64,000 nt of DNA. Origin: a virus. Taxonomy: Duplodnaviria; Heunggongvirae; Uroviricota; Caudoviricetes. Shown piece by piece: positions 2,994-57,516 of the stretch. The position numbers and the translations under genes were made by a program. Each line of letters opens with the position of its first letter. Positions within the stretch are counted from its first letter, which is position 1. The notes under the pieces are model-generated. The model was not told the origin of the DNA and made no database searches. It saw only the letters and a program-made list of their open reading frames with translations. Location: the IMG/VR virus record IMGVR_UViG_3300031993_006620; one strand, given 5' to 3'.

Positions 2994-3698
2994 ATGAATT
3001 TAGATGCAACTACAATTCAAGTGTTCTGGGACGCTTCGCTAATGGACTTAGAACAGCCCGACTGCGATGCAGTCTCATTGGAAGAACAGAAGAAGGTTCT
3101 TCCCGATTTATACAACGCGTTCAGCACGTCTTGGCAGTCGATGAACCGGCCGCATTCAGATTCGATGCCTAAAGGTGTCAAGCTCACTAACTGGTTCATC
3201 TCGTTCGACAATGAGTTAGGTATAACCGTCTGTACGGTGTACGAAATCAGCAATAGTTTGCTAAAGAATACCGACGGGCTGAAAAATATTATCAAGAAGC
3301 TTTCCGACGATATCGACGGCTGTTTCGACTCGTGGATGAATACCCATTTTGGCTTTACCGTTGATAAAACTCGATACTCGCTCTGGGCGCACGGATGGGC
3401 GAAAAAGATAGTTGCTCCGGTTGATGGCTGCAATAGCTTGATGGTCCGGTGGAATAACGTGGACGAAATCGAGCACGCCGACTGGCTTATGTCCTACAGA
3501 AATGAAGCGTATCACATACTTTTCGACAAAAAGTATCACAAGGAAACCGAGAGTCGTGTCCGGCGTCGTATCGAGGTTTACAAAGTAGATGATAGCGAGT
3601 TGGCTAAGAAACTATTGAAAGATGATCTTGGACTCTTGGATATGTATGCGTTCGTAAAGAAGAACAAGGATCGGTTTTTCTTCGCAACATATTGCTAA
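2994..3698 (+). CDS. hypothetical protein (234 aa), duplicate copy 2
   Basis: Identical to 1412-2116. Confidence 0.6.
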   Translation: MNLDATTIQVFWDASLMDLEQPDCDAVSLEEQKKVLPDLYNAFSTSWQSMNRPHSDSMPKGVKLTNWFISFDNELGITVCTVYEISNSLLKNTDGLKNIIKKLSDDIDGCFDSWMNTHFGFTVDKTRYSLWAHGWAKKIVAPVDGCNSLMVRWNNVDEIEHADWLMSYRNEAYHILFDKKYHKETESRVRRRIEVYKVDDSELAKKLLKDDLGLLDMYAFVKKNKDRFFFATYC

Positions 3699-3707
3699 GG
3701 AATGATT

Positions 3708-4091
3708 ATGGCCAGAATCGATCTTGAAGCGTTGGCCAAGGAATACGGCCTGCACGTAGAACGGGTCAACGTCGGGCGCCATACGCTATGGAAGGAAGCC
3801 GGCGTGTGCGTATTCATAGACCGCACACATACGGGCGGTTGCGCCATGCTCTGGGCGGTGTACCCGCCGGCCGGACACAAGCCGATGCGCGTCATCGACA
3901 GCTGTATAAGCATGTGGAGCGACCTGCGTTGCGAAAACGACCACAATTCCGGCATCCCAAAATGGCACAAGCACGAGGTGCTGGCCAACGACACGTTCAA
4001 CGAGCCCGCGATCAGGAAAACCATCGAGAATACCATAGCCCAGTACAACGAATGGCGGAATGGTATAATTTTAGAGGAAACCCCGCGATAA
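3708..4091 (+). CDS. hypothetical protein (127 aa), duplicate copy 2
   Basis: Identical to 2126-2509. Confidence 0.55.
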   Translation: MARIDLEALAKEYGLHVERVNVGRHTLWKEAGVCVFIDRTHTGGCAMLWAVYPPAGHKPMRVIDSCISMWSDLRCENDHNSGIPKWHKHEVLANDTFNEPAIRKTIENTIAQYNEWRNGIILEETPR

Positions 4092-9625: not shown

Positions 9626-11149
9626 CTACCCGCCCACCTCGTTGCGACGCGGCGTCGTGTTCCATCCGAGGCTGAACTCCCCGAACCGGCCGAAGTCACG
9701 GATGTACCTGTCCACGGCCGTCTCGGGTATGCGCTCCCCGAAATGGGTGAGGATGATGCTCATCATGTCCCCGTAGCCTGCCACGGGGTACTTGGCGCGA
9801 TATTGCTCAAGTACAGTGAAGTCGTAGTCGCCTGCGGGGCGACCGCGACCGACCTCGTTGAAGAGATCCACGGGCCACTCGTTGCCCTCGGACTGGACGG
9901 TGCCGGTCTCGAAGTCAACTTCCCTCGAGAAGCCGACAAACGTGTTCCTGTCGACGTACTCGACGACGCGGTCGATGAACATGTCGCTGCAGTACACGCC
10001 GTGTACCCTGCGCTCGGCTTCGCCAGTGGCGATGATCATGTCGCCGTGCCCGAGAAGCCTTTCGGCGCCGCCGTGACCGAGGATGGTGGAGCTGTCCACC
10101 GCCGAGCTCACCTTGAAGGCGATTCGGTAGGGGAGGTTCGCCTTCAGGTCGCCCGTGATGACCTTCACGGACGGACGCTGGGTGGCGAGAACCAGGTGGA
10201 TGCCCACAGCACGGCTCTTCTGCGCGAGCCTCTGGACGAGGCGCGTGAGCTCGGCACCGCTGGACAGCATCAGGTCGGCGAACTCGTCAACCACGCACAC
10301 GATGTAGCGCATGCGGGCACCCGAAAGCCGGGAGATCGGCATGGTCGAGAGCCTCGCGTTGTACGCGCCGATGTTGCGGCAACCCTTTGCGGCGAGGAGG
10401 GCATAGCGGCGCTCCATCTCGTCGACGAGCCACCCGAGACCTCGCATGGACTCTTCGGGCGAGACGAGAACCCTGTTGTTCACGCAGTTGGGGAGCTTCG
10501 CGAACATCCCGAGCTCGACACCCTTGGGGTCGACAAGGAGGAGGTCGAAGTCTCGCAGGTCGACGTTCTTGATGAGGCTCGCCACGATAGCGCCGATGCA
10601 CACGGACTTGCCGGAGCCGGTCATCCCGGCTATCAGCAGGTGGGGCGCCTTGGCGAGGTCTATCGCGACGCCGTGGCCGTCCACGGAGACGCCGAGCTCG
10701 AGGGGGAGGGACATTCCGGAAACGTCGGCCACGACGGAGCCGGGCAGGACATACTTCCTCGTCTTCGCGGGGATGTCCACCGCGAGGACGCCTTCCTCGG
10801 GAATCTGGGTGCAGGAGACCTTGCTGACCCTGAGGCCCATCGCGATGTCGTCGCACAGCGACTCGACCTGCGAGACCTTCACCCCCTCGGGGAGAGCCAG
10901 CTTGATACGGACGAGCACGGGACCGCACTCGATCCCCCTGACGACCGCACCGCGAACGCCGAAGCTGCCGAGCACCTTCACGAGACGGTCGGATATTCCG
11001 TCGGGGACTTCGTTGCCGAGGTCGGCCGTTTCGGAATAGCACCGTTCCACGAAGTTGTCGCGACTGGTTATCCCGTAGCAGGATATGAGCGACTTCGTAG
11101 CGTTGTCGAGCTGGATGCCGAACATTGTCTCGATGTCTTTGCAGTACAT
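9626..11149 (-). CDS. FtsK/SpoIIIE-family DNA translocase ATPase (507 aa)
   Basis: Walker A GMTGSGKS, LLVDPKGVEL and FtsK-type motifs; AAGGAGG RBS before MYCKD. Confidence 0.8.
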   Translation of the reverse strand: MYCKDIETMFGIQLDNATKSLISCYGITSRDNFVERCYSETADLGNEVPDGISDRLVKVLGSFGVRGAVVRGIECGPVLVRIKLALPEGVKVSQVESLCDDIAMGLRVSKVSCTQIPEEGVLAVDIPAKTRKYVLPGSVVADVSGMSLPLELGVSVDGHGVAIDLAKAPHLLIAGMTGSGKSVCIGAIVASLIKNVDLRDFDLLLVDPKGVELGMFAKLPNCVNNRVLVSPEESMRGLGWLVDEMERRYALLAAKGCRNIGAYNARLSTMPISRLSGARMRYIVCVVDEFADLMLSSGAELTRLVQRLAQKSRAVGIHLVLATQRPSVKVITGDLKANLPYRIAFKVSSAVDSSTILGHGGAERLLGHGDMIIATGEAERRVHGVYCSDMFIDRVVEYVDRNTFVGFSREVDFETGTVQSEGNEWPVDLFNEVGRGRPAGDYDFTVLEQYRAKYPVAGYGDMMSIILTHFGERIPETAVDRYIRDFGRFGEFSLGWNTTPRRNEVGG

Positions 11150-11171
11150 TGTGCCTCCTTGCTGGTTCACG

Positions 11172-11204
11172 TAATAAAAAATGCCGGGGCGGAGGAGCCC
11201 CGGC
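11172..11204 (-). terminator. rho-independent terminator downstream of the tmRNA
   Basis: Minus-strand read GCCGGGGCTCCTCCGCCCCGGC followed by ATTTTTTTATT. The stem sequence resembles the reiterated hairpin motif. Confidence 0.6.
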
Positions 11205-11346
11205 GACATTGACGATGTGCTGGAACCGTTCCGGCGAGAAAAAAGAGGCCAGCCGCCTTAGCGCAAGTTCCCAAACAACGAAATGGGTAACTGCGCGTCT
11301 GCCGCGTGCTGAACGGTGGTGCTACCGGCGGCTGGCGTGAGTTTCG

Positions 11347-11701
11347 TGGAGGTGGCGGGAGTCGAACCCGCGTCCAAAAACACTTACCCGCTTGCTACTA
11401 CACGCGTTTCCTCTGGATTTGAAATTTCGCAGGATCATACGCCCTAGAGGCCGGCGCGTGAACCCGCAAGCACCGATGGATCTCGGGGACGGCCTCGGTA
11501 CCGGACTTGTCCCCTACCCCGCATTGCGGCCCGGAGTCACCCCCAGCGGAGAAGGGGGCGGTCCAGGGGTTGCCTTAAATTAGGCAGCCATTGCTACAGG
11601 TGCAGCATTTATTTTTTACAGACTTTTTAACGAGTGCCCACGTCTGTGACCTCGGCGTGCAACTTGCGTATCGGCGTCCCTGTCGAAACCAGGTCACCCC
11701 C
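11347..11701 (-). ncRNA. ssrA: tmRNA (SsrA), about 355 nt
   Basis: 5' end GGGGGTGACCTGGTTTCGACAGGG and 3' end GGACGCGGGTTCGACTCCCGCCACCTCCA match E. coli tmRNA closely. An internal tag ORF ends ...GCAATGGCTGCCTAA (candidate tag AAPVAMAA); CCA is not encoded. Confidence 0.85.
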
Positions 11702-19949: not shown

Positions 19950-21345
19950 AGTTGACGACAAAATTATAAAATTTTTTCGCGTCAACTACCCACGCCCTAA
20001 AGGGCGTGAGCTTGTACGGCTCCCGTTGTTACCGCAGGGAGGCTTATGTACGATTGGGCGGTTGACATACACCCTGCCTTCCAAGTTCTCAATGCACCAT
20101 CAAGGGGCGTCTTGAACGAGGAAGGATGTTTGCTCTTCCGAGCTATATTGATTGCGGCATTCCAGTCGGCATCCAGGACAGTACCGTTCTTGCAATAGAA
20201 TCTACGATTCTTGCGAGTACCTTCCTTCTTGCCGGTGGTGCAATCTGTTTGGCTTGTCATGAACGGAGAAACCGTTTCCACTGTCTTACCGTACAGCGGT
20301 GCCTTGTATGACAAGATTTGCTTGAACTTGTAGAATGGAATTTGGTACATCCTACGATTATGGGATTTCCGTTTGAATCCCTCTTTAGACTTTGAAGTCT
20401 TCTGCTTAATTCCGCTTAAATCTTCCATTACGATAATGGAAGCCGCTGTGCTTTGAATTACCGCATTGGCAATCTTTCTGCACATATCGGTAGACTGGTT
20501 ATGTTCCTTGATGGATAGCTTACGAAAATGCCTATGAGCTGACTTGGTTCCTTTCTTCTGCAAGCATCGTTTCAAGTAACGTAGTTTGCGTTTACGCTTG
20601 TTATATTCCTTGTCATGGAACATGATGCCATCGGAGGAAATTGCGAAACGGCGTTCGCCCATATCCAATCCGATGCAGTTGTCATCATATAGAGGTACAT
20701 CGGGAACATTGAATGTTATCGAAAGGAAGAAACGCCCATTTCGCATGAAAATCAACGGGTCGGCGGTGGTATATTGCACAAACAGCGACTCCAGCCTGTC
20801 ATAGCCGACAATATCCGCTACGGCTCTTTTGCAAGCCTTGCCGGAGCACAATGCAATGCTCTTGCGATTGAACTTGGAATACAGCCGCTTGTCCAGCCTC
20901 ATTGATAGACCATGCTTTTCTGGTATTTTGTGCTTCTTATGACCGTTGCTCTTGATGGAACGAAATGCCGATATACATTCCTTGTATATTTTGATTACGG
21001 CTTGGCTTGGAATTGTTGGATATTCTTCTCGGAGAATATCATACACGGCTTTATGGACTGAACGCAAGTCTATATGGACATTGTTGGAATCTAATATGTT
21101 AGCACACTTGTTATAGGCTTCCCTGGACAATGCAAGAAGACTAGACCAGTATTCGTGGTCTTCCTTGGTACGGAACCGTATCTCTGCATTGTAGGTCAGT
21201 TCTACCATATAACTTTCACCCGTGTTCACCTATAAGTTTAGATAATTTCGGTTTGCAAAGCAAGTATTTTAGGCACAATATTGGAATAAATTGTTCCCAA
21301 AGTGTTCTCGTGGGCATTCCTATGCCGCCCTAAAGGGACGGCATC
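19950..21345 (-). mobile_element. IS200/IS605-family (IS1341-like) element carrying only tnpB
   Basis: Lower GC than flanks. Subterminal hairpins CACGCCCTAAAGGGCGTG at 19991-20008 and GCCGCCCTAAAGGGACGGC at 21324-21343, plus palindrome AGTTGACG..CGTCAACT at 19950-19987. Inserted between two motif-bearing genes. Confidence 0.6.
19997..21229 (-). CDS. tnpB: TnpB (IS605 OrfB-family RuvC-like RNA-guided nuclease), 410 aa
   Basis: RuvC-I CIGLDMGE, RuvC-II IVMEDL, Zn-finger Cys pairs, and RuvC-III CKNGTVLDADWNAAINIARK. Confidence 0.8.
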   Translation of the reverse strand: MNTGESYMVELTYNAEIRFRTKEDHEYWSSLLALSREAYNKCANILDSNNVHIDLRSVHKAVYDILREEYPTIPSQAVIKIYKECISAFRSIKSNGHKKHKIPEKHGLSMRLDKRLYSKFNRKSIALCSGKACKRAVADIVGYDRLESLFVQYTTADPLIFMRNGRFFLSITFNVPDVPLYDDNCIGLDMGERRFAISSDGIMFHDKEYNKRKRKLRYLKRCLQKKGTKSAHRHFRKLSIKEHNQSTDMCRKIANAVIQSTAASIIVMEDLSGIKQKTSKSKEGFKRKSHNRRMYQIPFYKFKQILSYKAPLYGKTVETVSPFMTSQTDCTTGKKEGTRKNRRFYCKNGTVLDADWNAAINIARKSKHPSSFKTPLDGALRTWKAGCMSTAQSYISLPAVTTGAVQAHAL

Positions 21346-24296: not shown

Positions 24297-24405
24297 TGTG
24301 AACCTCCTGAGATGGCTTGTTTGCACAGGTAGAATGGGTGGCCGGGGGAGCCCCGGACTCATTCGTTGGTGCTGGTGGCGTCTATAATCCGCGCCGTGGA
24401 AGTGA

Positions 24406-25412
24406 TTTCGAACCCCATGCGTATGGGGAGTATAATTATCGGCCAGTATTCGATGATCCGCTTTGTTTCAAACCCCATGCGTATGGGGAGTATTCGTCTT
24501 GTTGTGATTGAAGATGAACTGGACTATTTTCGATCCCCACACGTATGGGGAGTATATCAGCCTCACCACGAACCAACTGTACATGCGTATTTCGATCCCC
24601 ACACGTATGGGGAGTATATAAGCAATGACTGCCGGATGCCCTTATACAATTTCGATCCCCACACGTATGGGGAGTATCGACTTCTTAGACACGTCAGCAA
24701 GCTTCTTGGTTTCGATCCCCACACGTATGGGGAGTATCGTACCATTCTTCTTGACTAGGAACTCGTTCATGTTTCGATCCCCACACGTATGGGGAGTATA
24801 GCACAGGACTCGTGTCGCCTGCGGTGTAGTAGTTTCGATCCCCACACGTATGGGGAGTATAAATTAGCGGTGGGCAGCGAGCAGGCGTGCCGTTTCGATC
24901 CCCACACGTATGGGGAGTATATAAAGGTGCTTGCAGCAATAACATTAGCAGTTTTTCGATCCCCACACGTATGGGGAGTATCACCATTGTTTAGTTTTAC
25001 CTCTGCTCATAAAGTTTCGATCCCCACACGTATGGGGAGTATTCTTGCAACTTGCTCTCTATGGCGTGATCACTATTTCGATCCCCACACGTATGGGGAG
25101 TATCGCGAGGTCGCTGATTGCATCCTGCTTGGCGTTTTTCGATCCCCACACGTATGGGGAGTATAAGGGATGGGCCGGATGCCTTTTAGGGTGGCGTTTT
25201 CGATCCCCACACGTATGGGGAGTATCATCCAGAACAAGCCGACGGAGAAGCCGATTGTATTTCGATCCCCACACGTATGGGGAGTATTTACAATGTCGAC
25301 CAACGTCCCGACCTCAGTGCAGTTTCGATCCCCACACGTATGGGGAGTATTCCGAGCTGAAGGCTGTACGTCTTGCGCACGATATTTCGATCCCCACACG
25401 TATGGGGAGTAT
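24406..25412 (-). CRISPR. CRISPR array, 17 repeats of 28 nt with 16 spacers of 32-35 nt
   Basis: Plus-strand repeat TTTCGATCCCCACACGTATGGGGAGTAT; minus-strand read ATACTCCCCATACGTGTGGGGATCGAAA, containing a 5-bp stem. The two leader-distal repeats (24406, 24466) are degenerate. Confidence 0.95.
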
Positions 25413-29155: not shown

Positions 29156-31495
29156 CTATTTCTGGTCGGTCGGTTCAATCTCGTACCATCCATATTCATG
29201 GTCGTAGGCCATATCGGAAGGTCTAACCACGAACGGATAGTCTGGGTTGCGCCACATCGCTGGGTGTGTCCCGTAGAACTGACATTTGCGTTCTTGGGCC
29301 TTGCCGCCTTTCCCTTCCAAATACTTGTGAAGAACTGGAAAGTGTTCAGCAAAAGTTGAGTCGCTACGAACATACCTAAGCAGTTCGTTTCCCGACTTGA
29401 TATACGGTCTGAACGATGGTTTCGCCTTGAATGTCGTAAAGTCGGTATAGGATTCGCCAATCTGGAACGGACCGCAGTACACGCCGTCAGTGTCCTTTAC
29501 GACGAAGCTAATCGACGGGTCGATATTGCGGAGCGAACCGATATTTCCCTTGTTTTTGATGGACTTGCGCATAAAGGCTGGACGGTGCGGATAGCACTGC
29601 TTGACAAGCTCTTCCAAACCCTTCTTGTACAAGGTTTCTTGATACTTATTAAGCAAGTCGATATGTTCGGCGTTGAACGAGTCGAGCATCGCGTAAATGT
29701 CGCTCAAGGTCATCTTTTCCTTGACGTGAGACTTGATATAGTTCGTCCACGCCTTGTAGATGTCGTGAGTGACCTCGAAATCGTTGTGGTCGAGATAGAC
29801 TCGGTTTGCCTGTGACAAGTTAGATGGAATGACGAACACGATGGTCGCGTCTTGCACCTCACCCCAACGGTCACACCGACCGATGATCTGGATGTCGCCG
29901 TTAGGGGTACTTACCATAAATTCGATTTGGCGGAACGAAATGTCAAGGCTCGCTTTCATAATCGGTCCGGACGCAACACCTACCTTGTCGGCGGTCGCAC
30001 CCTTTCCGTACATCGAGTAAATCTTGTCCATTTTCGCCTTCTTGTCCTCGTCGGTGAACTTGCTGTGGAAGCAGATTGCGCCTTCGACGGACTTCGCTGC
30101 TTCCTGAGCGTCTGCAACTACGTTGAACACCTGAGCAGAGCCGTTCTCCAGCTTACCGAAATCTTCCTTTACCATAACATTGTACGGAACATTGTGCTGC
30201 GGCTGATAATGGGCGTTTCTTTTCGGAAGGTAGTTGACCCTCTCGTTGTCGCGGAAGAATTTCTCGTTATAGATGGTAATTGGAGTGGCAGAGACGAGCA
30301 GAGACTTCGCCTTGGTGAAGTTGTTGCGGAGCTGCAAGAGAATACAATAGGCCGCGTACATCGGGCAATTATCCATTGAGAACTCGTGGAACTCGTCGAA
30401 CACCATCGGAGCGGACATCATAACGTACTGCATATTGGCTTGTCTGTTGCTCGCGTACGGCTTTGTGATTGCGTCCAAATTCGTGACGATAATGTGCGGA
30501 CACGTCCCATCGTCCTCACGGTTGCTTCCCTTGATTTCGCCCGTATACATCTTTTCGATGCACACATCAAGGCCAAGCACTTCGTTGAGCTGAACGAGTC
30601 CGATGTACACGGATTCAATGACGGGGTTTCTTGGGCATACCCAATAAACCGTCTTGCGACACTTCAATGCCCAAGCCATACCGACGAGCGTCTTGCCGAA
30701 CCCAGCCGGGGCGGCGACCACATTGGTCGGTTTGTCGGCCAGGTTGACAATATCCATCTGTTGCGCGAAGCGTTCGGCATTGAAATTGTCCGGCTTGCGG
30801 ATTGTTTCGATGTTAAAACGGTCTTCGTTAAAGGAGTCGGCGTAACCGCTCACTTCTCGGTCGGCTCGGATAACCACTGCGCGAACGAACATCGTGAGAA
30901 CATTGTCGTCATACTTGGTCGGTTCGATTGCGAATAAGTTAGGCGCGACGAAGCTCTGCACGTCCCTTTCAGGAAATTCCATTCCGACAAGGTCGGAAAC
31001 GAAATCCGCGATGGCCTTAATGTCGAACTGGTCGCCGTAGAATATCTTCTGGCTGTAGTTCAGTTCGCCGTAGTCAGGCGCAGCGGCGTGATGCCAAAAC
31101 ACAGCCGACTTTACCGATTCATAGCACTTTCGGTCGGTTATGCCGAACTTTTCGCAAAGTTCAGGGCCATATACACAAAGGAAAGCCCAACTGAACTCGT
31201 TGTGGTATCGAGTAGCGTCGTCGGTGACTGCGTCCACCAATTCATCCGGTTCGGCGGACGCATCTTCGTTTTTCTTGATGTAGTCTTGAAAATACGGGAC
31301 TGACTTACCGATATCGTGAAGCAAACCGGCGACAAAGCAAGCCGTAATTACGGATTCCGTAGAATATTGCGGTCCGAACTGCTTCTTGAGTTCTGCACCC
31401 GAAAGAAGACTGGTCGCGATTTCCTTGGCTCGTAATGCGACCGTATTGCTGTGGTCTTTAAGGGTTACGCCGTTGTGCTTTGCGAGAATGGTCAT
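29156..31495 (-). CDS. cas3: Cas3 HD-nuclease/SF2-helicase (779 aa), not fused to Cas2
   Basis: N-terminal HD motifs (LLHDIGK, FWHHAAAPD). Walker A AAPAGFGKT and DExH-like DEFHEF. Confidence 0.85.
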   Translation of the reverse strand: MTILAKHNGVTLKDHSNTVALRAKEIATSLLSGAELKKQFGPQYSTESVITACFVAGLLHDIGKSVPYFQDYIKKNEDASAEPDELVDAVTDDATRYHNEFSWAFLCVYGPELCEKFGITDRKCYESVKSAVFWHHAAAPDYGELNYSQKIFYGDQFDIKAIADFVSDLVGMEFPERDVQSFVAPNLFAIEPTKYDDNVLTMFVRAVVIRADREVSGYADSFNEDRFNIETIRKPDNFNAERFAQQMDIVNLADKPTNVVAAPAGFGKTLVGMAWALKCRKTVYWVCPRNPVIESVYIGLVQLNEVLGLDVCIEKMYTGEIKGSNREDDGTCPHIIVTNLDAITKPYASNRQANMQYVMMSAPMVFDEFHEFSMDNCPMYAAYCILLQLRNNFTKAKSLLVSATPITIYNEKFFRDNERVNYLPKRNAHYQPQHNVPYNVMVKEDFGKLENGSAQVFNVVADAQEAAKSVEGAICFHSKFTDEDKKAKMDKIYSMYGKGATADKVGVASGPIMKASLDISFRQIEFMVSTPNGDIQIIGRCDRWGEVQDATIVFVIPSNLSQANRVYLDHNDFEVTHDIYKAWTNYIKSHVKEKMTLSDIYAMLDSFNAEHIDLLNKYQETLYKKGLEELVKQCYPHRPAFMRKSIKNKGNIGSLRNIDPSISFVVKDTDGVYCGPFQIGESYTDFTTFKAKPSFRPYIKSGNELLRYVRSDSTFAEHFPVLHKYLEGKGGKAQERKCQFYGTHPAMWRNPDYPFVVRPSDMAYDHEYGWYEIEPTDQK

Positions 31496-45692: not shown

Positions 45693-46217
45693 TTATTCCG
45701 GCATACGGTAGTTGTTCTCGTCGAGGTAGCTGCGCTCCGGTGCGCAGTAGCTGTCGAAAATTTCTCTGGCTCGGCGTTCCGCCTCGGCGTTGTTGTTGTT
45801 GTTGTTGTTGTAGAGATCAGTTTTCAGGCGGGCGAGTGCCTCGACGTACTTCATGATCTTGTCGAAATCCGTGTTCGCCGAATACCAGGTTGGCCGGTCG
45901 TTGATTTCATAGGGATATAGCGACATGTACGAACGTTTTTTGTATCCGTACACGCCGAGGGCGGCCTCCTTTTCGACGAGATCCACTTCCAGTATTGTCC
46001 CGATGCAATGCTTTTTGTCCGAACTGTACAGGACGAAGTAAATTTCCTGTCGAAAGTCGTCGATTTCTTTGTTTTGGTGGCGTTCAAGCTTGATACGGTA
46101 GCGGATGTCCTTGGGCAGAGCTGCAAGCGCTCGCTCTGCGGTGATCTGCCGCATGTGCTCGAGGTTCGCCTCTCGTACCAGATGGGGATCCACCTCGATA
46201 GGCTTGATTAGGGGCAT
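45693..46217 (-). CDS. hypothetical protein (174 aa) containing an N6 tract
   Basis: GGAGGACAGGC RBS; the (GTT)6 microsatellite at about 45788-45806 encodes NNNNNN. Confidence 0.55.
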   Translation of the reverse strand: MPLIKPIEVDPHLVREANLEHMRQITAERALAALPKDIRYRIKLERHQNKEIDDFRQEIYFVLYSSDKKHCIGTILEVDLVEKEAALGVYGYKKRSYMSLYPYEINDRPTWYSANTDFDKIMKYVEALARLKTDLYNNNNNNNAEAERRAREIFDSYCAPERSYLDENNYRMPE

Positions 46218-54539: not shown

Positions 54540-54782
54540 CTAGTATTCGCCGTCTTGGTAGCCGTCGCTGTAGTGGATGACCAGCTGGGCGTCGTCTTTG
54601 GGAAGGTCGGTGCGTTGCTCGCGGCTGGCACGTGCGTCGTCGTTACCCTTTTCCCACCACTTGTTGTTGAAACCTTCGTTGTATTCGTTCTGAGCGCTTT
54701 CGTCAGGGAAACCTTCGGTCTTGCGGGGTGTTTCCTTTTCGGCGTCCTTTGCGCCGAGCTCGTTCCAATTGGTCGTAGCCAT
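54540..54782 (-). CDS. hypothetical acidic protein (80 aa)
   Basis: Motif copy upstream. Confidence 0.5.
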   Translation of the reverse strand: MATTNWNELGAKDAEKETPRKTEGFPDESAQNEYNEGFNNKWWEKGNDDARASREQRTDLPKDDAQLVIHYSDGYQDGEY

Positions 54783-54837
54783 TTTCGTATCTCCTTTTGG
54801 TTGGTATAGTGGTTATAGGCATCCGGGGGAAGCCCGG

Positions 54838-55539
54838 CTACTGCTGGACAGTAGCTTCGGGTTTCTTGGCGGGGTTGAGCCGTTCTCCGCGCTTGATGAG
54901 AGTTTCCAAGCTGCTCTTAGCGTCCTGGATGGCTCGCCAATTTTCATCGATCTCACGAAGGAAATCGTAGTCATCGGGACACTTGGCCTTTTTTCAATTC
55001 GTGAGAAGGTGCTTGGCCATATCGGTAAAGGATTTTGCGGCCAAGATAACTTCGTCCTTGCGCTTCTTGAAATCGTCCTTGCGCTTGGCCTTGTCCGCCT
55101 TGATCCAGTCGGCTACCTTCTTATAGAAGCCGAGGAATCGGTCATAGATCTCGTCAATCTGCTTGGGGGTCATAGTGTCGAACCACGTCTTATCGACACC
55201 GCGTGTGGTAAAGAGAGCGCGTGTGGGAGAATAGGTTTCGGGGCAGCCATTCTTGAGCGGTCCGTCAGTCCATATCATCTTGGCATCCCATTCGCAGTCG
55301 AAGAAGATGTATGAGCTTGTTTCGAGGTACGGACGGCCTTGATCGTGTACAGTGTCGCCTTGACGGATGTCGGACAAGTGGTGGAACTTCTTGTCATAGG
55401 GGTTATAGATTGACAAGCTCAACATATACGGCCAGTCGTGCGGGTCGGTGATCTTGAACTTCTTGGGGTGCTTGGCGATGTACTTGCTAAGCGGCATTTC
55501 CAAGATCTGTTCGTGGGTAATTTTAAGTTCGTCGGCCAT
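54838..55539 (-). CDS. hypothetical protein interrupted by an in-frame TGA (181 aa + TGA + 51 aa)
   Basis: Start MADELKIT after a motif copy. In-frame TGA at 54994-54996 is followed in the same frame by KKAKCPDDYDFLREIDENWRAIQD... down to a TAG at 54838. The TGA is embedded in AAT TGA AAA AAG. Confidence 0.45.
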
Positions 55540-55605
55540 ATTTAACTCCTTGTGGTTGGTACAGGGAGAATGGGGCTCCGGAGGAGCCCCGGACACCCAG
55601 AGACA

Positions 55606-57461: not shown

Positions 57462-57516
57462 GTCTGATCTCCTTGATTGGTACAGGATGGATGGGGCGCC
57501 GGAGGAGCCCCGGTCA

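Follow-up and report, generated by a model that had tools for sequence, protein, structure and literature searches.

The gene at positions 54838..55539 of the window (the whole stretch of DNA analysed, 64 kb) very probably carries a recent nonsense mutation, in which the TGG codon of Trp-182 was changed to TGA in one shallow strain lineage. With respect to its kind, this is a known event, namely an ordinary premature opal codon. A recent nonsense mutation had been one of several options put forward in a sequence-only reading of the window, and it is the one favoured by the TGG codon in all relatives, the shallow distribution of the TGA allele and the undecayed state of the frame behind it. The layout of the gene given in that reading (ATG at 55539, 181 codons, TGA at 54994-54996, 51 further in-frame codons and a TAG before a hairpin) was reproduced in all coordinates. 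The ATG (55539-55537, minus strand) is preceded by AAGGAG, the TGA at 54996-54994 is situated in the context ACG AAT TGA AAA AAG GCC, and the 51-codon in-frame tail, KKAKCPDDYDFLREIDENWRAIQDAKSSLETLIKRGERLNPAKKPEATVQQ, is closed by the TAG at 54840-54838, which abuts the GC hairpin CCGGGCTTCCCCCGG (54837-54823). The features of the gene, of its surroundings and of the remaining window are listed in Table 1.

Table 1. Features of the interrupted gene, of the adjacent cassettes and of the wider window.
Feature	Position	Strand	Remarks
Ancestral full-length ORF	54838..55539	-	233 codon positions (181 sense, TGA, 51 sense), then TAG
In-frame TGA, codon 182	54994..54996	-	TGG (Trp) in every homologue
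51-codon tail, intact, 3' of the premature stop	54841..54993	-	Conserved in homologues; dN/dS as in the head
A AAA AAG heptamer	54988..54994	-	TGG>TGA beside a synonymous AAA Lys codon; interpreted as coincidental
Moderate RNA hairpin inside the coding sequence	54936..54987	-	Immediately 3' of the heptamer; begins 7 nt past the TGA
Downstream intergenic cassette	54783..54837	-	Hairpin CCGGGCTTCCCCCGG, TATACCAACC, AAGGAG, start codon (ATG) of the following gene at 54782
Equivalent upstream cassette	55540..55605	-	Hairpin CCGGGGCTCCTCCGGAGCCCC, TGTACCAACC, AAGGAG, then ATG at 55539
Tandem gene-pair copies (two)	1412-2509 and 2994-4091	+	Identical ORF lengths (234 aa and 127 aa)
FtsK/SpoIIIE-like gene	9626-11209	-	Best GTDB match Fibrobacter sp. 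UBA1765 MAG, 52% identity only
Full-length tmRNA	11344-11701	-	Rfam RF00023, 164 bits; adjoins the FtsK/SpoIIIE-like gene
TnpB / IS605 OrfB-like gene	19997-21229	-	Cas12f1-like TNB domain, phrog_506 transposase
CRISPR array	24393-25412		Repeat GTTTCGATCCCCACACGTATGGGGAGTAT on the + strand; 17 repeats of ~29 nt, spacers of ~32 nt
Cas3 gene (HD and helicase domains)	29156-31495	-	Near the CRISPR array

For the homologue search, the fused product with an X at the position of the stop was used as query. Ten protein clusters were matched (227-246 aa, 49-88% identity, 94-100% query coverage), all of which are colinear across the stop and continue past position 182 with the conserved tail. In the alignment, Trp occurs at position 182 in 10/10 clusters as part of a nearly invariant W-K-K-A-K-C motif. 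Due to the residue-for-residue alignment of the tail with the C-termini of all homologues, the open frame beyond the TGA is not a product of chance. On the DNA level, 11 homologous loci were fetched from ENA, Logan and JGI metagenomes. Codon 182 is TGG in 11/11 of these loci, and all of them end at a TAG that is followed by the same hairpin cassette. With regard to the orthologue comparison proposed in the sequence-only reading, none of the relatives ends at the TGA; the same tail continues in all of them, with Trp at the site. TGG AAG AAG is found in 10 of the 11 loci, and L009 reads TGG AAA AAG. Since this haplotype exists, the TGA AAA AAG of the window is only one G>A transition away from a known sequence. 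Between the tails of the window and of L009, 3 sites differ (dS 0.07), while dS in the head amounts to 0.55; as far as can be judged from the sequences, such a mosaic gene (54841-55539, compared to L009) suggests recombination among variants of the gene family.

No match was obtained in a nucleotide search of the phage collection, in a tblastn search of phage and plasmid records with the closest full-length homologue (P0001), or in IMG/VR viral contigs with a degenerate DNA pattern covering both alleles. Likewise, a profile scan of the GTDB representative genomes gave no relative of the gene family.

The original end of the gene can be deduced from the gene architecture alone. The neighbouring genes are all located on the minus strand, and their spacers consist of a stereotyped cassette of 50-80 nt with the order stop codon, GC-rich hairpin (of the CCGGGGCTCC-TCC-GGAGCCCC type), (C/T)TGTACCAACC or TATACCAACC, AAGGAG and ATG. 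This gene-separating cassette, in short GC hairpin, TACCAACC and AAGGAG, begins directly after the TAG, not after the TGA, and thus marks the true ancestral end of ORF 54838..55539. The TGA is followed by 211 nt without a cassette. Judged from the cassette genes and the gene calls for the near-identical contig L006, it is the only gap of this kind between cassette genes in which no other gene is located.

In total, the cassette precedes approximately 25 genes on the minus strand between 11150 and 63750 (e.g., at 55540-55605, 54783-54837 and 57462-57516), and it is also conserved in the related metagenomic loci L001 and L002. Its hairpin is of the GGGGCTCC-N-GGAGCCCC type, with no T-run behind it. 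The cassette may serve as a promoter, as a terminator lacking a U-tract or as an element for RNA processing or stability. Since the hairpin cassette recurs between ~11 kb and 64 kb, the entire stretch is assigned to one genome or element.

Two public contigs encode the exact 181-aa product. L007 (Logan SRR9008933, 1.9 kb) is 100% identical to the window, and L006 (ENA ERZ27257203, 98 kb, MEGAHIT) is 99.975% identical over 12 kb and ends inside the window. The sole difference between L006 and the window over these 12 kb is an (AAC)9 in L006 in place of an (AAC)8 at ~45770-45795, inside a coding region. The TGA allele was found only in sequences with at least 99.97% identity to the window and in none of the diverged sequences; the nearest relatives (88% protein identity) carry TGG. 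Comparing the window with its relatives, dN/dS is 0.13-0.36 in the tail and 0.18-0.32 in the head, and pairs of intact homologues gave 0.25-0.31; the tail values reflect the history before the mutation, and 51 codons provide little power to tell a recent neutral event from selected readthrough. All invariant tail residues are kept in the window, and neither a frameshift, a second stop nor an excess of amino-acid changes was observed there. Taken together, the undecayed tail and the shallow occurrence of the TGA in the sequences compared indicate an event that is probably recent. The undecayed tail fits recency and also continued selection on a read-through product. Among the window-specific substitutions, 3/8 are G>A, too few sites to be interpreted as an excess.

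Several other explanations of the TGA have to be considered. For a sequencing or assembly error with G as the true base (TGG), a single base separates both states, and the three near-identical assemblies sharing the A (window, L006 and L007, at least two assemblers) possibly go back to the same sample or reads. However, the window, the MEGAHIT contig from ENA and the Logan contig from a different assembler agree in the A, and the window and L006 are separate assemblies according to their different contig ends and the (AAC)8/(AAC)9 difference. From these sequences, an assembly error as source of the TGA appears unlikely, and a wrong base of whatever origin is given a probability of about one in twenty. 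The homopolymer error considered in the sequence-only reading does not agree with a G>A substitution that leaves the length unchanged and recurs in all three assemblies. Less probable still is a reassignment of UGA to Trp in the genome or mobile element (code 4 or a recoded element). In its favour, code 4 would yield precisely the Trp of the alignment, and some phage lineages are known to have reassigned stop codons (PMC11210395). In the window, however, SD-anchored gene calls (used in place of a mechanical scan for TGA-joined frames, which was too noisy at the G+C of the window) end with TAG in 37, TAA in 33 and TGA in 25 cases; at least 2 of the 25 TGA calls are artefacts inside the CRISPR array, and about 20 further genes are closed by a TGA at normal spacing. 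Six TGA-terminated genes are located directly before a cassette (stops 57517, 43520, 48094, 41080, 14476 and 62665) and four further ones occur in ATGA stop/start overlaps, so TGA is a working terminator in the same gene array. Furthermore, no other gene leaves an unexplained gap like the one of 211 nt (L006 gene calls), TGG occupies the site in all relatives, and the G+C of the window (48-66%) is unlike that of known code-4 lineages. With ARAGORN, no tRNA gene was detected in the 64-kb window, only the tmRNA, and hence neither a suppressor tRNA nor a tRNA-Sec is present there. Another kind of UGA reader on record is a tRNA-Trp whose anticodon stem has 4 bp (PMC13092985). The earlier judgement that a genome-wide reassignment is unlikely is thus confirmed by the about 20 other genes ending at TGA. 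Stop-recoded phages and code-4 bacteria resemble the present case in having UGA at a position of Trp in relatives; here, in contrast, only one such UGA is seen, TGA serves as a true terminator all along the array, the window lacks a suppressor tRNA and its G+C is moderate to high.

Recoding at an unchanged UGA is the other group of explanations. The sequence-only reading had placed the stop inside a heptamer identical to the dnaX frameshift site. A AAA AAG is indeed present at 54994-54988, but only the last A of the TGA lies within it. A programmed -1 frameshift of the dnaX type at this heptamer, or a +1 shift bypassing the stop, would be in line with the identity of the heptamer, the hairpin directly after it and a +1 frame that is open for 61 codons. 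Since the in-frame AAA AAG codons of the heptamer are situated 3' of the TGA, however, a ribosome meets them only after reading through. In addition, the -1 frame runs from the heptamer through KKGQVSR into a stop after 7 codons, and the +1 frame is not the one conserved in the homologues, which are colinear in frame 0; it is the frame-0 tail that is kept and not a +1 product. Related loci have G AAG AAG in 10/11 cases, and with 4 occurrences versus 8.9 expected, the window shows no enrichment of the heptamer. The E. coli dnaX site shares the identical heptamer with a 3' hairpin, but there the heptamer is not situated downstream of a stop as it is here; moreover, the -1 frame of the present gene yields no conserved product, and its heptamer is not conserved and arises from two third-position G>A differences. 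Frameshifting is accordingly given next to no probability, the suggested link to dnaX is not supported, and, judged from the homologous loci, the heptamer appears to be an accidental by-product of a G>A next to an AAA Lys codon. Just as improbable is the insertion of selenocysteine at the UGA, another option of the earlier reading, for which the in-frame UGA followed by a hairpin can be cited. In the homologues, the site is invariably occupied by Trp and in no case by Cys or Sec, no match to SECIS or any other Rfam family was obtained even at E<=10, and no tRNA-Sec is located within the window. A hairpin downstream of the stop, as it had been sought, does exist at 54936-54987 (window: -16.2 kcal/mol, z -1.8), but it corresponds to no SECIS family in Rfam, and it is shared with the TGG-bearing homologues, being stronger in L009 and L001 (-20.7 and -21.5 kcal/mol, z -2.3 and -2.1, respectively). 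Due to its presence and greater strength in TGG homologues it does not represent a stop-specific recoding signal. The structure consists of GGCCAA...UUGGC with an inner UCCCG/CGGGA stem (window 54936-54987 on the minus strand, L009 2050-2101, L001 6553-6604), and a GGG>GAA change (Gly>Glu) in the window lineage weakens it; the structure may be functional or may simply follow from conservation of the coding sequence. Most of the weight remaining among the rivals, somewhat more than for the base error, falls to a programmed, i.e., selected, UGA readthrough, although it is itself unlikely; a leaky UGA-A would be kept, and a major 181-aa and a minor full-length Trp isoform would be produced in the manner of Q-beta. 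The tail is intact with a dN/dS like that of the rest of the gene, UGAA is a relatively weak RF2-binding signal (PMC5373646), Trp-tRNA is a natural misreader of UGA (PMC10570021) that would restore the ancestral residue, and the hairpin begins 7 nt past the stop. Against this, the stop is missing in all other homologues (n=21 sequences) and occurs only in near-identical sequences, and the hairpin, which TGG homologues also possess, predates the stop and is less stable in the TGA lineage. Apart from the generally leaky UGA-A context, nothing points to the programmed readthrough that the sequence-only reading had offered. A newly arisen, selectively maintained leaky stop, in which UGA-A, hairpin and Trp-tRNA would give a tuned mixture of the 181-aa and 233-aa products, is assigned no more probability than the base error.

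If, as we consider most probable, a recent nonsense mutation is present, a G>A transition would have turned the conserved Trp-182 codon TGG into TGA in one shallow lineage. RF2 would then end most ribosomes at the UGA, resulting in a 181-aa product without the loop and the third long helix of the predicted protein. If the situation in E. coli can be transferred, a few percent of the ribosomes at most would insert Trp by means of the near-cognate Trp-tRNA(CCA); in competition with RF2, Trp-tRNA decodes UGA in wild-type E. coli at rates of about 2% (37 C) and 4% (25 C) (PMC10570021). Because Trp is the ancestral residue, ribosomes reading through would produce the exact wild-type 233-aa protein. 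This leak would be part of the unprogrammed background; no dedicated device for recoding would be involved.

Programmed UGA readthrough by Trp-tRNA is exemplified by the coat/A1 proteins of Q-beta, where the stop is fixed and conserved and the extension is an added domain. The present gene is similar in having a UGA followed by an open, protein-like extension, and in both cases Trp would be inserted; here, however, the stop splits what was ancestrally one ORF and is missing in all relatives. An ordinary opal nonsense mutation at a Trp codon is matched by the one-step TGG>TGA change, the shallow lineage and the intact downstream frame. Even with suppression by Trp-tRNA(CCA) taken into account, no difference in kind is seen, the misreading of UGA at the percent level being that of E. 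coli (PMC10570021).

Neither Pfam nor PHROGs contains a family for the encoded protein, the homologue clusters are without a Pfam domain, and no structural neighbour with E<=0.001 was detected when the AlphaFold model was compared with PDB and BFVD by Foldseek. The model, which was built from an 11-sequence alignment and is of moderate confidence (pLDDT 66), comprises a small N-terminal alpha/beta part, a poorly modelled region (67-116) and long helices at 125-155, 157-180 and 190-221. W182 is placed in the turn between the helices 157-180 and 190-221, and the tail comprises a loop (residues ~181-189) together with the last of the three long helices (190-221). Given this position of W182, termination at the UGA would lead to the loss of the conserved W-KKAKC loop and of the entire third helix. 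Based on the model, the 181-aa product is probably a null or hypomorph. Loss of the gene, one of many small accessory ORFs in a long array, is probably tolerated.

Apart from this array, genes for an MFS transporter, an FtsK/SpoIIIE-like protein, a tmRNA, TnpB and Cas3 were found in the window, as well as for HD-domain proteins, a C5 DNA methyltransferase and a GP88-domain protein. Judged from the best match of the FtsK-like protein, a weak pointer at 52% identity, the genome or element may be associated with the Fibrobacterota. A chromosome, a large plasmid and a large phage or mobile element with its own tmRNA are candidates for the replicon, and the choice among them has no effect on the verdict. 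The tandem gene pairs are situated in a part of the window with lower G+C (49-51%), and no Pfam match was obtained for their 234-aa proteins.

For annotation, the gene should be treated as a single 233-codon ORF with a premature opal codon, i.e., as a pseudogene or a leaky allele, and not as a candidate selenoprotein, frameshift or recoding gene; beyond annotation the finding is of little significance. It illustrates that a familiar recoding motif can be imitated by chance when TGG changes to TGA beside an AAA AAG pair. In case readthrough should be real after all, the gene would provide a minor case from nature in which leakage of UGA to Trp restores the wild-type protein. If the stop were moreover maintained by selection, this accessory gene, from an uncultured genome or element, would display a Q-beta-like readthrough switch of de novo origin at the moment of its emergence.
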